Sequence record: NC_054903.1 | DNA: 64,000 nt | Strand: one strand, 5' to 3' | Origin: Enterobacteria phage GiZh | In this document: piece after piece, positions 562-64,000 of the stretch | Layout of the letters: every line of letters starts with the position of its first letter | Position numbering within the stretch: the first letter of the stretch is position 1 | Made by a program: the position numbers and the translations under genes | The notes under the pieces: model-generated | The model's database searches: none | The model's input: the letters and a program-made list of their open reading frames with translations, nothing else | Told to the model about the DNA's origin: nothing

Positions 562-590
562 ATAAAAAAAAAGGGAGCCCGAAGGCTCCC
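562..590 (-). terminator. intrinsic terminator
   Basis: Hairpin GGGAGCC-CGAA-GGCTCCC (573-590) followed on the minus strand by a 9-U run. Confidence 0.7.
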
Positions 591-592
591 TA

Positions 593-1606
593 TCATTTAT
601 AATAACTTCGGTGGTTTTCAAGATAGACCTTCTCAAGGAAGTCATCCCAGAAACTCATGTCTACTGTTTTAGGCATACCGTTCTTAGAAGCTTCAGTAGA
701 TGCTGCTTCTACTTGATCGACCACATCTTCCAAAAACTCTTGAACTGTTTTAAATGGATGTTTACCCAACTTCACGTCGAGAATAAATGGAGCATCTTGA
801 AGTGGATAGACTAAGTCACCAGTTTTGTAAATTTCCAATAGTTGGAGTCCACCACGACAAGCATGACTCAAAGCTTTCCAGTCAATACCTTCATTGGCTT
901 CGGCCTTACGAGCACGTTCACCATATTCAGCATCTAATTTGTTCAGTGACTGCTTAAGCTCAATAAGAGAAAGCGTTGTCTGATATTTACGACCCAACAC
1001 AGTGTAGAACGTTTGTGGGCCTGTTTTCTCATGATTATGGAACACCCATTCACAGAATTCGTTTTCTGGAAGACGATGCTTAATATCTTCAACTTTAGTG
1101 CGACGCTGCTTAATAGAACCATCTTCTTGGTAATCAATCCACTGCTCAGGGATTTGATTAACTACTTTCAATACATCACGTAATGCAGCCAAACGAGAAC
1201 CTTTGACACCGTATTTAGAAGCTTGCTTGCGGACATATCCTAAATATGATTTCATGTTAGTCGTATAAAAACGAGAACGGTTGTCTTGAATAAACTTCCA
1301 CACATCAGGCAAATCAGATTTAACCACTAGTTCAGGTGGAGTGTGAAGCATATCTAATGCTACGGTTTCACCATCTGCTGCTAATTTAAAGAAATATTTA
1401 AGACTGTATAGTTCATGGTCAATATCATCTTTAGTGTTTTTAGATGATGTGTTGTTAGTGTTTTTACTCATATGCTCTTTAACATTTCCGATAAGAATAT
1501 CGCGAGCAGGAGGAACAAAGATTTCTTTAAAATCTACATCAGATTCTGGAGTAGAAGTTCCATAAAGATGACTACCAAAATAGCTTTTCATTACTGTTTT
1601 CATCAT
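593..1606 (-). CDS. nucleotidyltransferase-fold protein (pol-beta superfamily signature)
   Basis: 337 aa ORF; N-terminal YFGSHLYGTSTPESDVDF fits the G[GS]-x(9-13)-Dh[DE]h NTase motif; later acidic residue in VALDMLH. Confidence 0.6.
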   Translation of the reverse strand: MMKTVMKSYFGSHLYGTSTPESDVDFKEIFVPPARDILIGNVKEHMSKNTNNTSSKNTKDDIDHELYSLKYFFKLAADGETVALDMLHTPPELVVKSDLPDVWKFIQDNRSRFYTTNMKSYLGYVRKQASKYGVKGSRLAALRDVLKVVNQIPEQWIDYQEDGSIKQRRTKVEDIKHRLPENEFCEWVFHNHEKTGPQTFYTVLGRKYQTTLSLIELKQSLNKLDAEYGERARKAEANEGIDWKALSHACRGGLQLLEIYKTGDLVYPLQDAPFILDVKLGKHPFKTVQEFLEDVVDQVEAASTEASKNGMPKTVDMSFWDDFLEKVYLENHRSYYK

Positions 1607-2064
1607 TCAGCCTTATATTCAATAACAGGACATACTTTAGCTTTACGCGCTTTTAAAAATTCGACGATAACCGATTTCTTGGGTTGAATAGGAGGTAAAC
1701 CTTTATACGCCCTATCAATATTTTCTACGTGTAAAGCATAATCCTTTTTCCATTTATAATCTTTATATTTTTCACGCAAATGTGCAGGAATAACAAATGA
1801 ACCGATAATAAGTAAAACAACCAAAAGCGCAAGTATAAATGCCGATGGAAGAAGAGTCCATAAACTACCGAAAATAAGCCAACGTTGTAGGCTTTCTGCA
1901 CAAATAATTGTTAGCCCTACGAGTATAGCACATCCAAAAATAGAAACGAAAAATGTAGGAATGGCAATAGACCAAAAATATGCGCATAGTGTCTTAGGTC
2001 GTTGCCATTCATCGTTAAACAATTTGAATAATTTATAATGCCAAGAGTTTTCATTAATAATCAT
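1603..2064 (-). CDS. hypothetical membrane protein
   Basis: 153 aa ORF with hydrophobic helices; 4-nt overlap with downstream gene suggests coupling. Confidence 0.5.
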   Translation of the reverse strand: MIINENSWHYKLFKLFNDEWQRPKTLCAYFWSIAIPTFFVSIFGCAILVGLTIICAESLQRWLIFGSLWTLLPSAFILALLVVLLIIGSFVIPAHLREKYKDYKWKKDYALHVENIDRAYKGLPPIQPKKSVIVEFLKARKAKVCPVIEYKAE

Positions 2065-2066
2065 AA

Positions 2067-2588
2067 TTATCCTTTCATTGAAGGTGTAACAGTTGTTAAA
2101 TACTTAATCATAGCCTCAGCTTCTGATTTTGATAGTGAAATTTCTTCACCGTTTTGGCGAATAGAAACAAAATCTGGATGACGATCACCACCAGCTTTTA
2201 AAACACACATATAAGTATCAGCTTCGCCTTCAATATTTGAAATGATTGAAGCAGTTCCACACGAATGTGGTTTTTGATAAATCAATACAGCTTTTCTTCC
2301 ACCATTTGACTGTTCATAGGCTTTTAATACATCAAACAAATCAGTTCTTTTATCAATAGCTAAAATGTTATTTTCATCTTCAATGTTAAATCCTTCGGAT
2401 ACTTCATAAAGCGTTACCCATAAATCACCAATGTCAATAACAGCATTTACTTTTCCACGGCTTTCAAGAGTATGACAAATTTTCTTGATTTCGTCATAAC
2501 TCATTTTAATAATATCATCTCCTTGAATAAGAAAGATGTCATTTTTAAATTCAACACGAATTAAACCACTTTCACTTGAAATAAACAT
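2067..2588 (-). CDS. hypothetical protein, member of a tandem paralog family
   Basis: 173 aa ORF; C-terminus EAEAMIKYLTTVTPSM resembles that of the next ORF. Confidence 0.5.
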   Translation of the reverse strand: MFISSESGLIRVEFKNDIFLIQGDDIIKMSYDEIKKICHTLESRGKVNAVIDIGDLWVTLYEVSEGFNIEDENNILAIDKRTDLFDVLKAYEQSNGGRKAVLIYQKPHSCGTASIISNIEGEADTYMCVLKAGGDRHPDFVSIRQNGEEISLSKSEAEAMIKYLTTVTPSMKG

Positions 2589-2594
2589 ATTTCC

Positions 2595-2906
2595 TCACTT
2601 TGAAATCATAGTTGGAATGACAGAATCAAGATAAGTCTTTAGTGCAATAGCTTCGTCTTTGGTAAATGTGACAATATGTGCTCGAGAATCATCATTTTGG
2701 CGAACAAGTACGACATCGCCATCTTCATAAGAAGTCTTGACATCCAAAGTCGTAGTATAGTTTGCAGCTACTGGATTAATAATGTTAGCACCGCGATCTT
2801 TAGCCCATTGAAGTTTAGCCTTTTCGGGTGTTTCGGCTGTTTCAGATTCTAAGAATTCTTTCACCTTGGCAACGAATGTTGCCCAATTGTTGATAGAAAG
2901 ACACAT
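2595..2906 (-). CDS. hypothetical protein, tandem paralog (start placed at internal Met MCLSINNW)
   Basis: ORF 2595..2966 in track; start trimmed to avoid 56-nt overlap; C-terminus DEAIALKTYLDSVIPTM. Confidence 0.45.
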   Translation of the reverse strand: MCLSINNWATFVAKVKEFLESETAETPEKAKLQWAKDRGANIINPVAANYTTTLDVKTSYEDGDVVLVRQNDDSRAHIVTFTKDEAIALKTYLDSVIPTMISK

Positions 2907-2910
2907 AAAT

Positions 2911-3150
2911 TCAGTTTCNAATATTACCGCCGTAAAGGCCACGATAAAAACGAACTTGGAGGTCACCTGTAATATTAGTTACACCGGTAACTCCTGAGGG
3001 AGCATAAGATAAAATCGCAGCCAGTTCCATAGGAAGAATAGTAATACTATCGTCTTCCTGCGTCAGAACGTATACATTACCGCGTTTTTCGATAACTAGG
3101 TCACCGAACAAATCAGTTGTTTCAATTACAGCTTTCATATTATTTACCAA
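2911..3150 (-). CDS. hypothetical small protein, tandem paralog; contains ambiguous base
   Basis: 79 aa ORF; motif QEDDSITILPMELAAILSY resembles neighbours; N at 2920 gives one X codon. Confidence 0.4.
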   Translation of the reverse strand: MVNNMKAVIETTDLFGDLVIEKRGNVYVLTQEDDSITILPMELAAILSYAPSGVTGVTNITGDLQVRFYRGLYGGNIXN

Positions 3151-3325
3151 TTAAAGTTTCAATATAAGAATCAAGATTTACTTTAGCTTCTTCCATAAGA
3201 GTTTTGTATTTAATCTTGTTAGCATGTCCGGAGAAAGCTGATTCATCAATAATTGTTGATGTATGAACAGCTTTACTATACGTCTCAATTAATTCTCTTA
3301 ATTTAAAAGCCTGCTCACTTGTCAT
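3140..3325 (-). CDS. small helical hypothetical protein
   Basis: 61 aa ORF in track. Confidence 0.4.
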   Translation of the reverse strand: MTSEQAFKLRELIETYSKAVHTSTIIDESAFSGHANKIKYKTLMEEAKVNLDSYIETLIGK

Positions 3326-3489
3326 TACATACTCCTCTGAATCATATCAATAATGTTGTTTACCAAATTATAAGTAAACATTGGGTAATTATATTGAATC
3401 ATCACATACACAACAAACAAAACTTTCATTCTCTTCTCCTTGGCAGTTGACAAGATTACTATACCATAACCTTGCCAACTTGTAAACCA

Positions 3490-3663
3490 TTAAATGACGT
3501 TTTCAATAAAATTCTGAAGCTTTGTGTGAGCATCAACCATGATTTTCATTTCTTCTTTGGCGAAAGCTGTACCTCTTTCCCGAGCAGAATACTCATAGTC
3601 AGAAACTGCATTAGCATATTCTTCAATTAGCTTCATTAAAAACATCTGCTTTTCAGTTTTCAT
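3490..3663 (-). CDS. small helical hypothetical protein (below ORF-track cutoff)
   Basis: Hand-translated 57 aa ORF MKTEKQMFLMKLIEEYANAV..., similar in composition to neighbouring small ORFs. Confidence 0.3.
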   Translation of the reverse strand: MKTEKQMFLMKLIEEYANAVSDYEYSARERGTAFAKEEMKIMVDAHTKLQNFIENVI

Positions 3664-3847
3664 TATTCCACCTAATCATTTCAAGATATTGAACTAATTT
3701 AGCTTTAGATTTGTCCAAATCCTTTTTAGCTGCTTCTATACCGTCGTATGAATATCCTTCACAATGCTCAACTGCTAATTGGTATGAATCTATTTCAATA
3801 TCATGCGCTAATTTAATGATTTTTTCAAACTGTTCGCGTGTTAGCAT
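3653..3847 (-). CDS. small helical hypothetical protein
   Basis: 64 aa ORF in track. Confidence 0.4.
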   Translation of the reverse strand: MLTREQFEKIIKLAHDIEIDSYQLAVEHCEGYSYDGIEAAKKDLDKSKAKLVQYLEMIRWNNEN

Positions 3848-3849
3848 AA

Positions 3850-4053
3850 TTAAACTCTCGTATTATGATCGATAATTTCATCAAGAAACATATCTAACGC
3901 TTCTAAAGCATTATCAACTTTAGCTTCAAGTTCATCAATACCTTTATTTGCAATGCCTGACGAAAACCAAGCAAAGTCACTAAGTTCCTCGTCTGCTTTA
4001 CGAATTAAAGCTACCAATTCTTTAATCTTATCCGCTTGCTCTATACTAATCAT
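3850..4053 (-). CDS. small acidic hypothetical protein (start placed at MISIEQADK)
   Basis: ORF 3850..4089 in track; internal ATG at 4053 gives an ATGA overlap with upstream ORF stop. Confidence 0.4.
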   Translation of the reverse strand: MISIEQADKIKELVALIRKADEELSDFAWFSSGIANKGIDELEAKVDNALEALDMFLDEIIDHNTRV

Positions 4054-4307: not shown

Positions 4308-4331
4308 TGAAAAAAGTCTCCCGAAGGAGAC
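4308..4331 (-). terminator. intrinsic terminator
   Basis: Hairpin GTCTCC-CGAA-GGAGAC plus U-run on minus strand. Confidence 0.65.
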
Positions 4332-4336
4332 TAATG

Positions 4337-4723
4337 TTATTCGAGGGAAAGAAGATACTTACTCTGGTAAAACATTCCAGTAATATCATCTATCGTGCTT
4401 TGGATGGCTGGAGGCATTTCTTTATAAATGCTGTTAGATTGGTCTAGTATGTGATCAATCATTTTAATTGTGTCGGTAGGAAGTTTACTGGCATCTGGAA
4501 TTGAAGGCGTGTATTTTCTACCAGAATACCCCAAATATTGCTCACCAAATTTATCAATCAAATCTGGCAACTCGGAGAAAATAAAATCGTATGCTTTGTG
4601 TCTAGCATAACTTTTAGTTTCAAAATGTGCAGAATGAAAATAAGCTTGTGCAGCCATTAATAAACCTAAGTATTCATCTGCCTTTGAAGGTTTTCCACTT
4701 TGTGAAAAGTCGCTGAATTTCAT
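4337..4723 (-). CDS. hypothetical protein at the T4 rI.-1 position
   Basis: 128 aa ORF immediately downstream of rI, overlapping its stop. Confidence 0.6.
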
Positions 4724-5013
4724 TCAGTCTCCAATTTAATGTTCATAATTCTAGCGTATGATTGTGCCATCTCCGCGCCTCGTTCTATACATTCAAAATC
4801 AGAAGAGCACGGGTCATTTTTATAGGTCGTTCTCATAAAACTATAGAATTGTTCAGACGATTCTACGCTTTTATTTTCAAAAAGTGTATAAACGTGCCTA
4901 ATACCAGATTCCATAAATTTATCAAAATGAGGATCGACATTCGCTTCAATCGATGGAGATAAAACAAATGACAATCCTAGCATGGCAAAAAGTGCCGTTG
5001 CTTTTAAGGCCAT
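4720..5013 (-). CDS. rI: lysis inhibition regulator rI
   Basis: 97 aa; MALKATALFAMLGLSFVLSPSIEA... matches T4 RI as recalled; N-terminal signal-anchor. Confidence 0.85.
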   Translation of the reverse strand: MALKATALFAMLGLSFVLSPSIEANVDPHFDKFMESGIRHVYTLFENKSVESSEQFYSFMRTTYKNDPCSSDFECIERGAEMAQSYARIMNIKLETE

Positions 5014-5280: not shown

Positions 5281-5862
5281 CTAACCGAGCTTTTTAGTTA
5301 ATTCATTCCAATGTTTTCTGCACAAAGAAACATAAATTTCATCACCAATACAGATTTGATTACCTTCTTTAACTGGTGTTCCATCTTCCATTAATCGAGC
5401 TGTCATAATCGCTTTTTTGCCGCAATGACAAACTGCCTTTAGTTCAATAAGTTTATCTGCAATCGCTAAAAGTTCTTTAGAACCTTCAAACAATTTTCCA
5501 GCGAAATCAGTCCTTAATCCATAAGCCATAACAGGAACATTATATGTATCAACAATTCGGCTCAATTGATGCACCTGTTCAGTTTTTAAAAACTGAGCTT
5601 CATCTACAAATACGCAATGAATATCTTTTTGTGCTTCAGCCCATTTATAGAACTCGAAAATATCCATATCATCTGTAATAATATTCGCTTCCTGTTTAAT
5701 TCCAATGCGAGAAACAACTTCACAGACAGAATCGCGAGTATCAATAGCAGGCTTAAGAACTAATACACTCATTCCACGTTCTTTATAATTATGTGCAGCA
5801 GTCAAAAGAGAAGCAGATTTTCCAGCATTCATTGCTGCATAAGTAAAAATTAAACTCGCCAT
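5281..5862 (-). CDS. tk: thymidine kinase
   Basis: 193 aa; P-loop AAMNAGKSASLL; length and sequence consistent with T4 Tk. Confidence 0.9.
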   Translation of the reverse strand: MASLIFTYAAMNAGKSASLLTAAHNYKERGMSVLVLKPAIDTRDSVCEVVSRIGIKQEANIITDDMDIFEFYKWAEAQKDIHCVFVDEAQFLKTEQVHQLSRIVDTYNVPVMAYGLRTDFAGKLFEGSKELLAIADKLIELKAVCHCGKKAIMTARLMEDGTPVKEGNQICIGDEIYVSLCRKHWNELTKKLG

Positions 5863-5871
5863 ATCACCTTC

Positions 5872-6057
5872 TTAAAGCGTATTCACATAAGCTATTAATT
5901 CATTTTCTTTCTTATCAAACCGATCAGCAAATTCTTCCTGCTGTTCTGGAGATAGCGGGCCGTATTCATCATAAAAGGTGTTTGCTTCTATATGCTCATC
6001 TAGAAGTTCATGGATAAGCTCAAACAATTTATCTTTTTGTTCTTTGCTTAGACTCAC
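5872..6057 (-). CDS. small acidic hypothetical protein
   Basis: 61 aa ORF directly upstream of tk. Confidence 0.45.
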   Translation of the reverse strand: MSLSKEQKDKLFELIHELLDEHIEANTFYDEYGPLSPEQQEEFADRFDKKENELIAYVNTL

Positions 6058-57917: not shown

Positions 57918-57972
57918 ATTAAAAAAGGCCCAACCAAAAAGGAAGGGCCAAAACTATAGACTAAAGGTCACA

Positions 57973-62350: not shown

Positions 62351-64000
62351 AAAAGCCACAAGAAATGCAAACGATGCGTAGAAAAGTTATTTCAGATAAT
62401 AAACCAACACAGGAAGCGGCTAAATCCGCTTCCAACACTTTATCTGGACTTAATGATATATCTACGAAATTGGATGATGCTCAAGCTGCTTCTGAATTAA
62501 TAGCTCAAACTGTCGAAGAAAAATCGAATGAAATAGTTGGAGCAATTGGTAACGTAGAAAGCGCAGTGAGTGATACTACTGCTGGTTCTGAGTTAATTGC
62601 TGAAACTGTCGAAATTGGCAACAATATTAATAAAGAAATCGGTGAATCACTCGGAAGCAAATTAGATAAATTAACAAGTTTACTAGAGCAAAAAATCCAG
62701 ACAGCTGGAATTCAACAAACAGGAACTAGTTTAGCTACGGTTGAAAGCGCTATTCCCGTTAAAGTCGTTGAGGATGATACTGCTGAATCTGTGGGTCCTT
62801 TATTACCAGCTCCTGAAGCAGTTAATAATGATCCTGACGCTGATTTTTTCCCTACCCCTCAGCCAGTTGAGCCAAAGCAAGAATCACCAGAAGAAAAACA
62901 GAAAAAAGAAGCATTTAACTTAAAATTATCTCAAGCTTTAGATAAATTAACAAAGACAGTTGATTTTGGATTTAAGAAATCCATTTCAATTACTGATAAA
63001 ATATCAAGCATGCTATTTAAGTATACCGTCAGTGCTGCTATTGAAGCTGCTAAAATGACTGCAATGATATTGGCTGTTGTTGTTGGAATAGACCTGTTGA
63101 TGGTTCATTTTAAATACTGGTCAGATAAATTTTCAAAAGCCTGGGATTTATTTAATACTGACTTTACTAAATTCTCTAGCGAAACCGGAACATGGGGTCC
63201 TTTATTACAGAGCATCTTTGATTCTATTGATAAAATTAAACAACTTTGGGAAGCGGGAGATTGGGGTGGATTGACAGCAGCTATTGTTGAAGGACTCGGA
63301 AGTGTTCTTTTTAATTTAGGTGAACTTATTCAATTAGGTATGGCTAAATTATCTGCAGCAATTCTTCGAGTCATTCCTGGTATGAAGGATACTGCTGATG
63401 AAGTAGAAGGAAGAGCATTAGAAAATTTCCAAAATTCTACTGGAGCATCTCTCAATAAAGAAGACCAGGAAAAAGTTGCAAATTATCAAGATAAACGAAT
63501 GAATGGAGACCTTGGTCCGATAGCAAAAGGATTAGATAAAATTGCTAATTGGAAAACTCGTGCATCTAATTGGATTCGTGGGGTTGATAATAAAGAAGCA
63601 CTAACTACCGACGAAGAACGCGCAGCAGAAGAAGAAAAATTAAAGCAACTTTCACCTGAAGAAAGAAAAAATGCTTTAATGAAGGCTAATGAAGCCCGTG
63701 CCGCAATGATTCGCTTTGAAAAATATGCTGATTCAGCTGATATGAGTAAAGACTCAACGGTTAAATCTGTTGAATCTGCCTATGAAGACCTTAAAAAACG
63801 GATGGATGACCCGGATTTAAATAATTCACCGGCGGTTAAAAAAAAANTTGCTGCTAGATTTTNTTAAAANTNATGCTACTTATCAAAAGCTCAAGAAGAA
63901 NCAGCCTAATGCCAAANCTGAAANTTCTGCTAAAACGCCAGAAGCAAAANAAANCCAGGGAATAGAAAAAAAAAAAGCACAGCAAGCTCCTGTTCAACAA
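62347..64000 (+). CDS. 29: tail tube length determinant gp29 (partial; 3' end beyond window)
   Basis: ORF open to window end; track stops at 63867 only because of ambiguous bases. Confidence 0.85.

Follow-up and report, generated by a model that had tools for sequence, protein, structure and literature searches.

The window analysed here is a 64,000-nt stretch of the Enterobacteria phage GiZh record (NC_054903.1), a T4-like (Tequatrovirus) phage, and covers the nrdC.11–tk region with its genes on the minus strand. To positions 2067 to 3150 we assign mobD.1 (2595..3138, minus strand; a y05I family gene of 180 codons plus stop once the N at position 2919 is dropped) and, 6 nt beyond its stop codon on the same strand, the start of a 173-aa tandem paralogue (2067..2588, minus strand; RB32ORF097c, called 'MobD.1-1' in Kha5h). 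A GAGG ribosome-binding site precedes the ATG of the 173-aa gene by 5 nt. Immediately upstream of mobD.1 lies a 61-aa DUF7438 gene (3140..3325, minus strand), the stop codon of which falls 1 nt before the mobD.1 ATG. The gene immediately downstream of the 173-aa paralogue encodes a 153-aa predicted membrane protein (RB32ORF096c; 1603..2064, minus strand; phrog_944 'membrane protein', 7e-50) and, like the paralogue itself, is missing in T4.

The best site in a scan for promoters of the Sigma-70 / T4-early type (3458..3486, minus strand; TTTACA-17-TATAGT with an extended TG, 10/12) precedes the mobD.2 ATG by about 22 nt. It corresponds in position to the T4 early promoter Pe57954 (PMC6024815), just upstream of mobD.2 at 57,932, and likely starts the transcription unit that contains both paralogues. 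An intrinsic-terminator-like hairpin followed by a T-run after nrdC.11 (572..591, minus strand), also detected by scanning, probably ends this mobD.2-to-nrdC.11 unit; Kha5h and OE5505 have a terminator annotated at the same position. The early unit would then comprise, in order, the promoter, mobD.2, the 61-aa gene, mobD.1, the 173-aa gene, the membrane protein gene, nrdC.11 and the terminator. A genome-reduced T4 that lacks the nrdC.11-mobD.3 segment is viable (PMC9825161), and we infer that both paralogues are early, accessory genes, dispensable in the laboratory.

The first-pass annotation had read the interval as three tandem paralogous genes of 173, about 103 and 79 aa. The corresponding minus-strand ORFs are present (2067..2588, 2595..2966 and 2911..3150), and the peptide segments quoted from them are found there. 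The second ORF encodes 123 aa, or 103 aa from an internal Met; the third encodes 79 aa from a TTG, or 75 aa from the ATG at 3138. These two overlap by 56 nt (2911-2966), as had been noted, and the ambiguous base, placed earlier at 2920, is at 2919 (2919..2919, a single position with no strand), inside the overlap; it lies in the smallest ORF as stated but in the 123-aa ORF as well. The apparent pair of overlapping ORFs arises because this N, a surplus base without a counterpart in close relatives, breaks the mobD.1 frame: any base in place of the N breaks the frame within two codons, and its deletion fuses the two small ORFs into a single 543-nt ORF. Choosing an internal start, the remedy adopted earlier for the overlap, is the wrong fix, as both ORFs belong to one gene and represent the N-terminal 73 and C-terminal 107 codons of mobD.1.

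Comparison with other phages points to the same structure. In the alignment, Kha5h and RB18 are both gapped opposite the N, and all flanking bases are identical. Kha5h is 99.7% identical to GiZh in this region, and positions 2860-3000 are identical to the intact Kha5h gene apart from the N. With the N removed, the mobD.1 product is identical to that of the Kha5h ORF and 100% identical to that of an ORF of Salmonella phage Jbel; the equivalent ORF in RB18 is annotated MobD.1 (YP_010066981). A continuous mobD.1 reading frame is found in 720 of 731 phage records (at least 80% coverage at a single matching place; tblastn), with partial coverage in the other 11. Programmed frameshifting in mobD.1 was rejected because the relatives have no frameshift at this site.

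From these alignments the N at 2919 is most likely a base-calling or assembly artefact, as the first-pass annotation had suspected. The record has low-quality stretches, since nine further Ns fall at 63847-63954, a visibly poor part of the sequence. It is improbable that the N marks a real +1 insertion that has made mobD.1 a fresh pseudogene in the GiZh isolate, its function covered by the 173-aa paralogue. In favour of such a loss, mobD.1 is dispensable in T4 (PMC9825161) and adjoins its paralogue, and truncated or deleted versions of the gene do occur in nature (e.g. P0055, P0034 and the 11 records with partial coverage); but base-calling or assembly errors typically leave an ambiguous call at just the surplus position, as here, the additional Ns show that the record has poor sequence elsewhere, and the identity of the restored protein to the Kha5h product and of the compared stretch leaves no secondary mutations. 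Three separate genes with a shared motif near each C terminus can be dismissed: the ORFs exist as listed, and a few database entries are split or short (e.g. the 102-aa and 43-aa proteins of Yersinia phage fPS-90), but the two small ORFs are collinear in a single alignment with the N and C halves of the 173-aa protein, are the two halves of one Pfam architecture, are split exactly at an inserted N that is absent from relatives and that falls within a single predicted folding unit (unit 2, residues 52-99), and are continuous in the 720 records counted above. The interval thus almost certainly holds two genes, not three. The N should be treated as a sequence error; otherwise an annotator will call two bogus genes at this place or none. 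In the Kha5h record the mobD.1 ORF is intact, yet no CDS is annotated there.

The tandem paralogy proposed earlier is real for the two genes. BLASTP aligns the 173-aa protein with restored MobD.1 collinearly in one alignment (residues 8-171 against 12-177) at 29% identity over 165 residues (E=2e-9). The alignment crosses the N site, so that the two small ORFs, listed before as separate paralogues, align as parts of one protein. Both products match the two Pfam domains of the T4 y05I-like family far above the gathering scores (24.9 bits for PF24449, 27 bits for PF24448): for PF24449 (T4_y05I_N), 4e-33 and 114.4 bits for the 173-aa protein and 1.6e-31 and 109.3 bits for restored MobD.1; for PF24448 (T4_y05I_C), 1.6e-23 and 83.3 bits and 2.8e-17 and 63.3 bits, respectively. 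The two domains lie in one frame in the 173-aa gene as written, and in mobD.1 only after the N is removed. Both proteins also match phrog_1502 end to end at about 1e-66 (8.9e-67 for MobD.1). On these similarities mobD.1 and the 173-aa gene are tandem paralogues that arose by gene duplication, and both are members of the family defined by PF24449 and PF24448. We put the probability that this anatomy and the family assignment are both correct at about 0.9.

The genes and their family are already known, and the pointer of the first-pass annotation to the mobD region of T-even phages led to the right place, the mobD.1 locus. The two-domain architecture of T4 MobD.1 (Y05I_BPT4; NP_049711) is common to both GiZh genes. 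The 173-aa protein is 92-99% identical to RB32ORF097c and Kha5h 'MobD.1-1', the paralogue known from T6, RB32, RB27 and about 430 records, which occupies the same slot between mobD.1 and the 153-aa membrane protein gene; with no material difference, the GiZh gene is another copy of a known hypothetical gene. At 80% identity or above it is present in about 432 phage records, and in Kha5h it is annotated 'similar to mobD.1; MobD.1-1'. The family is small, with 29 representatives in an exhaustive representative search. NCBIfam and PADLOC gave no matches, and we found no functional study of, or experiment on, any mobD.1/y05I family member in the literature. A Foldseek search against BFVD returned family members only and was uninformative on function. 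A C-domain profile match in nine stretches of a 1572-aa repeat protein (P0062) was judged to be a chance match summed over repeats.

AlphaFold2 models suggest that each protein is built from three units, each with about four strands and then a helix; the first two make up the N domain and unit 3 the C domain. MobD.1 unit 1 (residues 2-43; 3010..3135, minus strand) and unit 2 (residues 52-99; 2841..2985, minus strand, including the N at 2919) are each predicted to have four strands and a helix. Unit 3, which corresponds to T4_y05I_C (residues 108-178; 2604..2816, minus strand), has five predicted strands and a long helix. In the 173-aa paralogue the N-terminal domain (PF24449; 2304..2585, minus strand) is modelled as two strand-strand-strand-strand-helix units (E2-5 E8-14 E18-22 E25-29 H31-43 E49-53 E56-60 E67-70 E75-78 H81-96), with a pLDDT of 91.3 and a pTM of 0.81; Pfam delimits its C-terminal domain (PF24448) to 2076..2285 on the minus strand. 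The MobD.1 model has a pLDDT of 77.5, with moderate values in the C domain (56-80).

The motif that had been noticed three times in the interval is real and has two sources, the gene duplication and an internal repeat inside each protein. It occurs as QEDDSITILPMELAAILSY in unit 1 and QNDDSRAHIVTFTKDEAIALKTYL in unit 3 of MobD.1, and as SKSEAEAMIKYL in the C-terminal domain of the paralogue; in the 79-aa piece it therefore belongs to the first of the three MobD.1 repeat units and is not C-terminal, as had been thought. The likeness of QEDDSITILPMELAAILSY to QNDDSRAHIVTFTKDEAIALKTYL identifies an intra-protein repeat: unit 1 aligns with unit 3 over strands as well as helix, with an hhalign score of 26.9 (P=2e-5), against 8.7±1.8 for column shuffles (maximum 16; 0/200 reach the score) and 6.7 for the reversed control. 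Unit 2 has no sequence similarity detectable by hhalign to units 1 and 3 (P about 0.1). The best-conserved part between the paralogues is unit 3, and a C-terminal helix K-x-E-A-x-A-x-x-x-Y-L is common to both genes. Proteins that consist of the C unit alone (69-87 aa) occur in other T4-like phages, as would be expected of a unit that needs a pairing partner, and a natural hybrid gene that joins the N part of mobD.1 to the C part of 097c shows that C units are interchangeable.

The modelled order of elements raises the question of a PC4-like fold. A type I PC4-like domain is defined as strand-strand-strand-strand-helix, a linker and the same again, and a type II domain as a single such unit that dimerises (PMC7549692); the secondary-structure order predicted in two independent AlphaFold models fits these definitions. 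In domains of this fold the repeats exchange their helices, each of which lies against the sheet of the other repeat. Foldseek searches of the PDB with full-length and N-domain models gave nothing below E=0.01, and the N-domain TM-scores did not exceed 0.51. Among the weak matches are 5fgo (Pur-alpha repeat III; E=0.077, probability 1.0, TMt 0.66) and 2gia (MRP1/2; probability 0.54). The best PDB matches of the N-domain model are the Whirly-like two-repeat proteins 2NVN and 2IT9, both cyanobacterial (probabilities 0.97 and 0.90; for 2nvn E=0.029 and TMq 0.47), and the SsgB-like 3CM1 (TMq 0.51, rmsd 3.8 Å). All are single-chain domains of about 100-125 residues; the E-values are 0.03-0.24 and the identities 5-10%. 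We take 2nvn, 2it9 and 3cm1 to belong to the PC4/Whirly fold class, following SCOP and the SsgB structure paper. SsgB has been described as having a 'whirly shape' (PMC8061694). Matches to sliding clamps, Ctf4 and PH domains were dismissed (TM 0.1-0.3).

Sequence searches found no such relationship. PurA, Whirly and PC4 gave no Pfam match even at E up to 10, with whole proteins or single units, which is weak counter-evidence because, according to the review of PC4-like proteins, members usually lack mutual sequence similarity. A PDB sequence-profile search with the family alignment gave chance-level matches only (CsoS1D and AcrIIC5, E about 0.3). The sole recurring Pfam match of single units, itself weak, is to DUF7189 and covers the portion of units 1 and 3 made up of strand 3, strand 4 and the helix.

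We give the PC4-like fold, on the evidence of the models, about an even chance. It is possible, though clearly less likely than that, that the resemblance is coincidental, the proteins having a new small alpha/beta fold in which the likeness of units 1 and 3 is a local hairpin-plus-helix motif only. All Foldseek E-values are at or above 0.01, many unrelated folds (PH domains and sliding clamps) are among the matches, and unit 2 lacks sequence similarity to units 1 or 3; against coincidence, the elements follow one another exactly as in the type I definition, the highest-probability matches come from one fold class, and the similarity between units 1 and 3 spans strands as well as the helix.

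If the fold is PC4-like, the closest parallel would be Pur-alpha (PDB 3K44/5FGP/5FGO). This PC4-like protein contains a type I as well as a type II domain: repeats I and II of a chain pair with each other, and repeat III pairs with that of a second chain. According to a 2020 review, it is the only protein known to combine an intramolecular two-repeat domain with a dimerising repeat. The phage proteins resemble it in their three consecutive predicted strand-strand-strand-strand-helix units, the first two in one domain and the third separate, in sequence similarity that is detectable between some repeats only, and in having single-repeat relatives that stand alone (bacterial Pur-alpha on the one hand, phage C-unit proteins of 70-87 aa on the other). 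They differ in that there is no sequence or profile relationship and the structural match is weak (E=0.077), in being acidic, not basic, and in the five predicted strands of unit 3. By analogy with Pur-alpha, the two repeats of the N domain would form a pseudo-dimer within the chain, and the C unit would serve for homo- or heterodimerisation. On the same analogy the paralogues could conceivably form heterodimers through repeat III, and pairing of C units would allow MobD.1/MobD.1, 097c/097c or mixed dimers. For a family known by its Pfam name but not from experiment, a possible PUR-like three-repeat fold is a definite hypothesis to begin with.

The N-terminal part of mobD.1 is variable among T-even phages. 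Over the hypervariable segment 2730..3135 (minus strand), which holds the first ~135 codons of mobD.1, blastn finds no nucleotide match in T4 or OE5505, although the flanking DNA is about 96% identical; even T4 shares the DNA of 2570-2729, at 88%. In T4, mobD.1 has the same location as in GiZh, with mobD.2 to one side and nrdC.11 towards the other, and the same early-gene orientation, but the allele differs: the identity of the proteins is about 47-50% in the first 135 residues. By tblastn, MobD.1 is at least 90% identical in 72 records, 60-80% identical in 152 and less than 60% identical in 507.

Throughout the family the full-length proteins are acidic: their net charges are -9 to -22 and their pI values 4.2-4.8. 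Because of this acidity and the sharply different N-domain alleles of mobD.1, we consider binding of a host or phage macromolecule the most likely role, and tentatively suggest that it is a protein-binding one; the proteins would form dimers and serve in host takeover or counter-defence. A role as a classical DNA-binding transcription factor seems less likely. It is rather doubtful that they are true PC4/PUR-like ssDNA/RNA binders or transcription factors, whose sheet surfaces would bind nucleic acid and so modulate early transcription, replication or mRNA fate. That reading draws on the predicted topology (two strand-strand-strand-strand-helix units plus a third), on the weak structural matches to Pur-alpha, MRP1/2 and 2it9/2nvn, on the general nucleic-acid binding of the PC4-like fold class (PMC7549692), on the Pfam label 'putative transcription factor' and on the basic unit 3 of the T4 allele (pI 8.85). 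Set against it are the acidity of the whole proteins, the absence of a significant sequence or structure match to any nucleic-acid binder in Pfam, PDB profile and Foldseek searches, and SsgB itself, one of the best structural matches, which works by protein-protein contact (FtsZ recruitment; PMC8061694). Taking fold and role together, y05I/MobD.1 may speculatively be pictured as a phage PC4-like protein of Pur-alpha architecture that has become acidic and adapted to bind a host or defence factor, possibly by mimicking nucleic acid. If so, an arms race would have left its record in the sharp divergence of the N-domain alleles, the conservation of the C unit, the tandem gene copies and the naturally occurring hybrids.

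The locus is a small example of early-region plasticity in T-even phages, seen here in the duplication of an accessory gene, an N-domain cassette that differs between alleles, recombination of the paralogues to give a hybrid and, in T4, the replacement of one copy by mobD. GiZh has the second copy and T4 does not. The T4 gene order is nrdC.11-mobD-mobD.1, and of the 173-aa gene T4 retains, beside mobD, the ribosome-binding site and six initial codons (ATGTTTATTTCAAGTGGA), a six-codon stub which indicates that T4 lost this copy to insertion of the mobD homing endonuclease.

The three ORFs that the first-pass annotation had read as tandem paralogues are all present in the window, at 2067..2588 (173 aa), 2595..2966 (123 aa; a start at an internal Met gives 103 aa) and 2911..3150 (79 aa, TTG start), with the 56-nt overlap described there between the second and the third. 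The ambiguous base, placed at 2920 in that annotation, is at 2919. In an aligned 141-nt stretch around this position, the window reads AATATT-N-GAAAC where both Kha5h and RB18 read AATATTGAAAC, and all remaining bases are equal in the three phages; by this alignment the N is one extra base. Any base substituted for the N leads to a stop within two codons. Deletion of the N gives a 543-nt ORF of 180 codons (2595..3138, minus strand), with a product identical to that of an uninterrupted Kha5h ORF and 100% identical to that of an ORF of Salmonella phage Jbel; the equivalent ORF in RB18 is annotated as MobD.1. A tblastn search found mobD.1 in 731 phage records, in 720 of which at least 80% of the protein was covered at one matching place. 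Since the N is extra and the relatives carry a single intact ORF, the 79-aa and 103/123-aa ORFs are the two ends of one gene; comparison with relatives thus yields the single continuous ORF that had been named as evidence against separate genes.

A genuine +1 mutation of mobD.1 in the GiZh isolate would produce the same split. The ambiguous call stands exactly at the extra position, no other change accompanies it and the record contains further Ns, so that an artefact is much more likely, in line with the frameshift or assembly error already suspected; Kha5h and RB18 have no frameshift at this site. The nine further Ns lie within ~110 nt (63847-63954) beside long A-runs, in a poor-quality stretch at the window end where any ORFs are probably also split by artefact. 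The intact 180-aa ORF of Kha5h (3196-3738) has no CDS annotation and instead bears implausible misc_features (one a 'cos site' likened to siphovirus ends, another a 'repressor-binding site OL1'). RefSeq wrongly gives T4 mobD.4 and the mobD.1 of several T4-like phages the name 'molybdopterin-guanine dinucleotide biosynthesis protein MobD', mixing up phage 'mob' (mobile endonuclease) names with those of the bacterial Mob proteins for the molybdenum cofactor.

The locus holds two tandem paralogues of the y05I family; the proposed paralogy and shared motif stand, and the third member was a product of the inserted N. The 173-aa protein and restored MobD.1 are collinear over nearly their full length (residues 8-171 and 12-177, 29% identity, E=2e-9), and the alignment passes unbroken through the N site. 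Both match Pfam T4_y05I_N (4e-33 for the 173-aa protein, 1.6e-31 for MobD.1) and T4_y05I_C (1.6e-23 and 2.8e-17), and both give end-to-end matches to phrog_1502. Neither the genes nor the family are new to the record: the paralogues are annotated in many relatives, and Kha5h has the 173-aa one entered as 'similar to mobD.1; MobD.1-1'. The motif segments QNDDSRAHIVTFTKDEAIALKTYL (MobD.1) and SKSEAEAMIKYL (173-aa protein) occupy equivalent positions in unit 3, the last of three strand-plus-helix units. QEDDSITILPMELAAILSY, from unit 1 of MobD.1, forms with QNDDSRAHIVTFTKDEAIALKTYL what profile comparison identifies as an internal repeat. A 17-sequence family alignment was split into the three units and the profiles compared: unit 1 and unit 3 matched with a score of 26.9 (P=2e-5, probability 77-80%), strands and helix both aligned, against 8.7±1.8 (maximum 16) for 200 column shuffles and 6.7 for the reversed control. 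Unit 2 had no sequence similarity to units 1 or 3 in this comparison (P about 0.1).

The window is from a T4-like phage (Tequatrovirus), and 1900-3400 is 99.7% identical to Kha5h and ~98% identical to RB18 and others. The neighbouring minus-strand genes nrdC.11 (593..1606), rI (4720..5013) and tk (5281..5862) place the paralogues within the nrdC.11–mobD.x early region, bearing out the first-pass annotation's pointer to mobD. The top promoter-like site of the first 6.2 kb (TTTACA-17-TATAGT with TG, 3486..3458, minus strand) lies ~22 nt before the mobD.2 ATG and appears to match in position the T4 early promoter Pe57954, directly upstream of mobD.2 at 57,932 (PMC6024815). Hairpins resembling terminators were located at 4332..4315 and 591..572. 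A likely transcription unit, tightly packed and on the minus strand, comprises mobD.2 (3325..3429), a 61-aa DUF7438 gene (3140..3325), mobD.1, the 173-aa gene, a predicted 153-aa membrane protein gene (1603..2064) and nrdC.11. The nrdC.11-mobD.3 segment is missing from viable genome-reduced T4 mutants (PMC9825161); mobD.1 is therefore dispensable in the laboratory. The last gene of the unit, nrdC.11, matches Pfam RlaP (E=3e-11), an 'RNA repair pathway DNA polymerase beta family' nucleotidyltransferase. The region around mobD.1 also contains a swarm of helical DUF7438 mini-paralogues, five minus-strand genes of 57-67 aa (Pfam, E 1e-15 to 3e-19): the 61-aa gene, mobD.2a (3490..3663), mobD.3 (3653..3847), mobD.4 (3850..4053) and tk.1 (5872..6057). 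PHROG 4859 and RefSeq tag the 61-aa gene 'helicase loader', a label without support in the present analysis.

The 173-aa gene is well conserved: about 432 records, those of T6, RB32 and RB27 among them, carry it at 80% identity or more. In T4 the gene order is nrdC.11-mobD-mobD.1, and both the 173-aa gene and the membrane-protein gene are missing. Right after the mobD.1 stop, the 173-aa gene survives in T4 as its RBS and six opening codons (TGAGGAAATATGTTTATTTCAAGTGGA; ~4710-4783 of our T4 segment, 2570-2594 of the window), past which T4 diverges into the mobD insert. This footprint shows that in the T4 lineage the second paralogue was displaced by endonuclease insertion, with the mobD homing-endonuclease gene replacing both the 173-aa and the membrane-protein genes. 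MobD.1 itself falls into discrete alleles (tblastn: at least 90% identity in 72 records, 60-80% in 152 and below 60% in 507). The window is ~96% identical to OE5505 DNA up to 2729 and again from 3136, with no nucleotide alignment to OE5505 in between (2730-3135, which spans the first ~135 codons of mobD.1). The part shared with T4 is limited to 2570-2729 (88%). Similarity to both phages thus breaks off sharply inside mobD.1 (codon ~136) and returns at or beyond its start, and 2730..3135 has the look of an allelic cassette, for which the 731 phage records give at least four identity classes.

Two metagenome proteins have rearranged structures. P0045 (179 aa) joins ~125 N-terminal residues of a T4-type MobD.1 to ~50 C-terminal residues of the 173-aa protein and is a recombinant between the tandem paralogues. 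It is encoded on three contigs (L004 4001-4540, L005 4001-4540 and L006 1306-1845) as the sole y05I gene in the slot occupied by mobD.1 and the 173-aa gene. An 88-aa 'Phage_tudor' gene, absent from the window, comes before it. In P0055 (210 aa), the first ~50 codons of a T4-type mobD.1 run in frame into the C-terminal part of nrdC.11, a natural deletion that has taken out the remaining mobD.1 codons along with the genes for the 173-aa and membrane proteins.

The AlphaFold2 model of MobD.1, run on the 98% identical P0001 (pLDDT 77.5), has three units of strands followed by a helix: unit 1 (strands 2-5, 14-19, 22-27 and 30-34, helix 36-43), unit 2 (strands 52-57, 60-64, 71-74 and 79-82, helix 85-99) and unit 3 (strands 108-112, 116-120, 128-136, 140-149 and 152-158, helix 160-178). 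The N domain (units 1 and 2) of the window's 173-aa protein, modelled alone (pLDDT 91.3, pTM 0.81), gave four strands, helix, four strands, helix, the same unit topology as in the definition of the PC4-like fold, in which type I has two strand-helix units in one chain and type II is one unit dimerising with swapped helices (Janowski and Niessing, PMC7549692). Pur-alpha, the sole protein reported with both types (Janowski and Niessing, PMC7549692), would be paralleled by the predicted y05I layout of a two-unit N domain and a one-unit C domain. Foldseek gave no structural match at E<0.01, and the weak matches were to Pur-alpha repeat III (5fgo, E=0.077, prob 1.0, TMt 0.66), MRP1/2 (2gia), 2nvn and 2it9 (E=0.03-0.05, prob 0.97 and 0.90) and SsgB-like 3cm1 (TMq 0.51, rmsd 3.8 Å). 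We take 2nvn, 2it9 and 3cm1 to belong to the Whirly/PC4 fold class (SCOP; SsgB structure paper). PMC8061694 speaks of a 'whirly' shape only. Weak as they are, the matches seem to point to one fold class. Pfam and PDB searches gave no sequence link to PurA, Whirly or PC4, and we treat a PC4-like fold as a lead with about even odds.

A literature search found no experimental work on any y05I family member, and the paralogues had no match in NCBIfam or PADLOC. Each of these two early-region proteins is modelled with three sheet-plus-helix units, of which units 1 and 3 are related in sequence. The two N-domain units would pair within one chain and the C unit with that of a second chain, so that the paralogues would form homo- or heterodimers (compare Pur-alpha and Pur-beta). 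Because of the acidity of the family, its allelic N domains and its dispensability, we tentatively prefer a dimeric binder of a host or phage macromolecule, for example a takeover or counter-defence factor, as a better fit than a DNA-binding regulator. Nucleic-acid binding, or a transcription-factor role, is what the Pfam label points to; we hold a nucleic-acid binder to be nearly as likely, though the marked acidity of the family (pI 4.2-4.8, net charge -9 to -22; the one basic part is unit 3 of the T4 allele) speaks against it. A bolder reading, with a probability of about 0.3, joins fold and acidic binder: a Pur-alpha-like PC4-type architecture of three repeats may have been repurposed as such a binder while subject to diversifying pressure.

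Searched exhaustively with the family profile, a set of 1.8 billion representative proteins yielded only 29 family representatives, among them the distant full-length members P0049, P0051 and P0069. Many of the 29 are stand-alone C-unit proteins of 69-87 aa, found in T4-like phages of Salmonella, Klebsiella, Serratia and Erwinia (tblastn; BFVD names); a lone unit fits a module that requires a partner, i.e. a dimer. The C-domain profile also matched nine stretches of a 1572-aa metagenome repeat protein, P0062 (E=1.4e-7; repeats CDSIVTTVLTVNPAY…HISICEGESYKGHT), probably a chance match summed over repeats.
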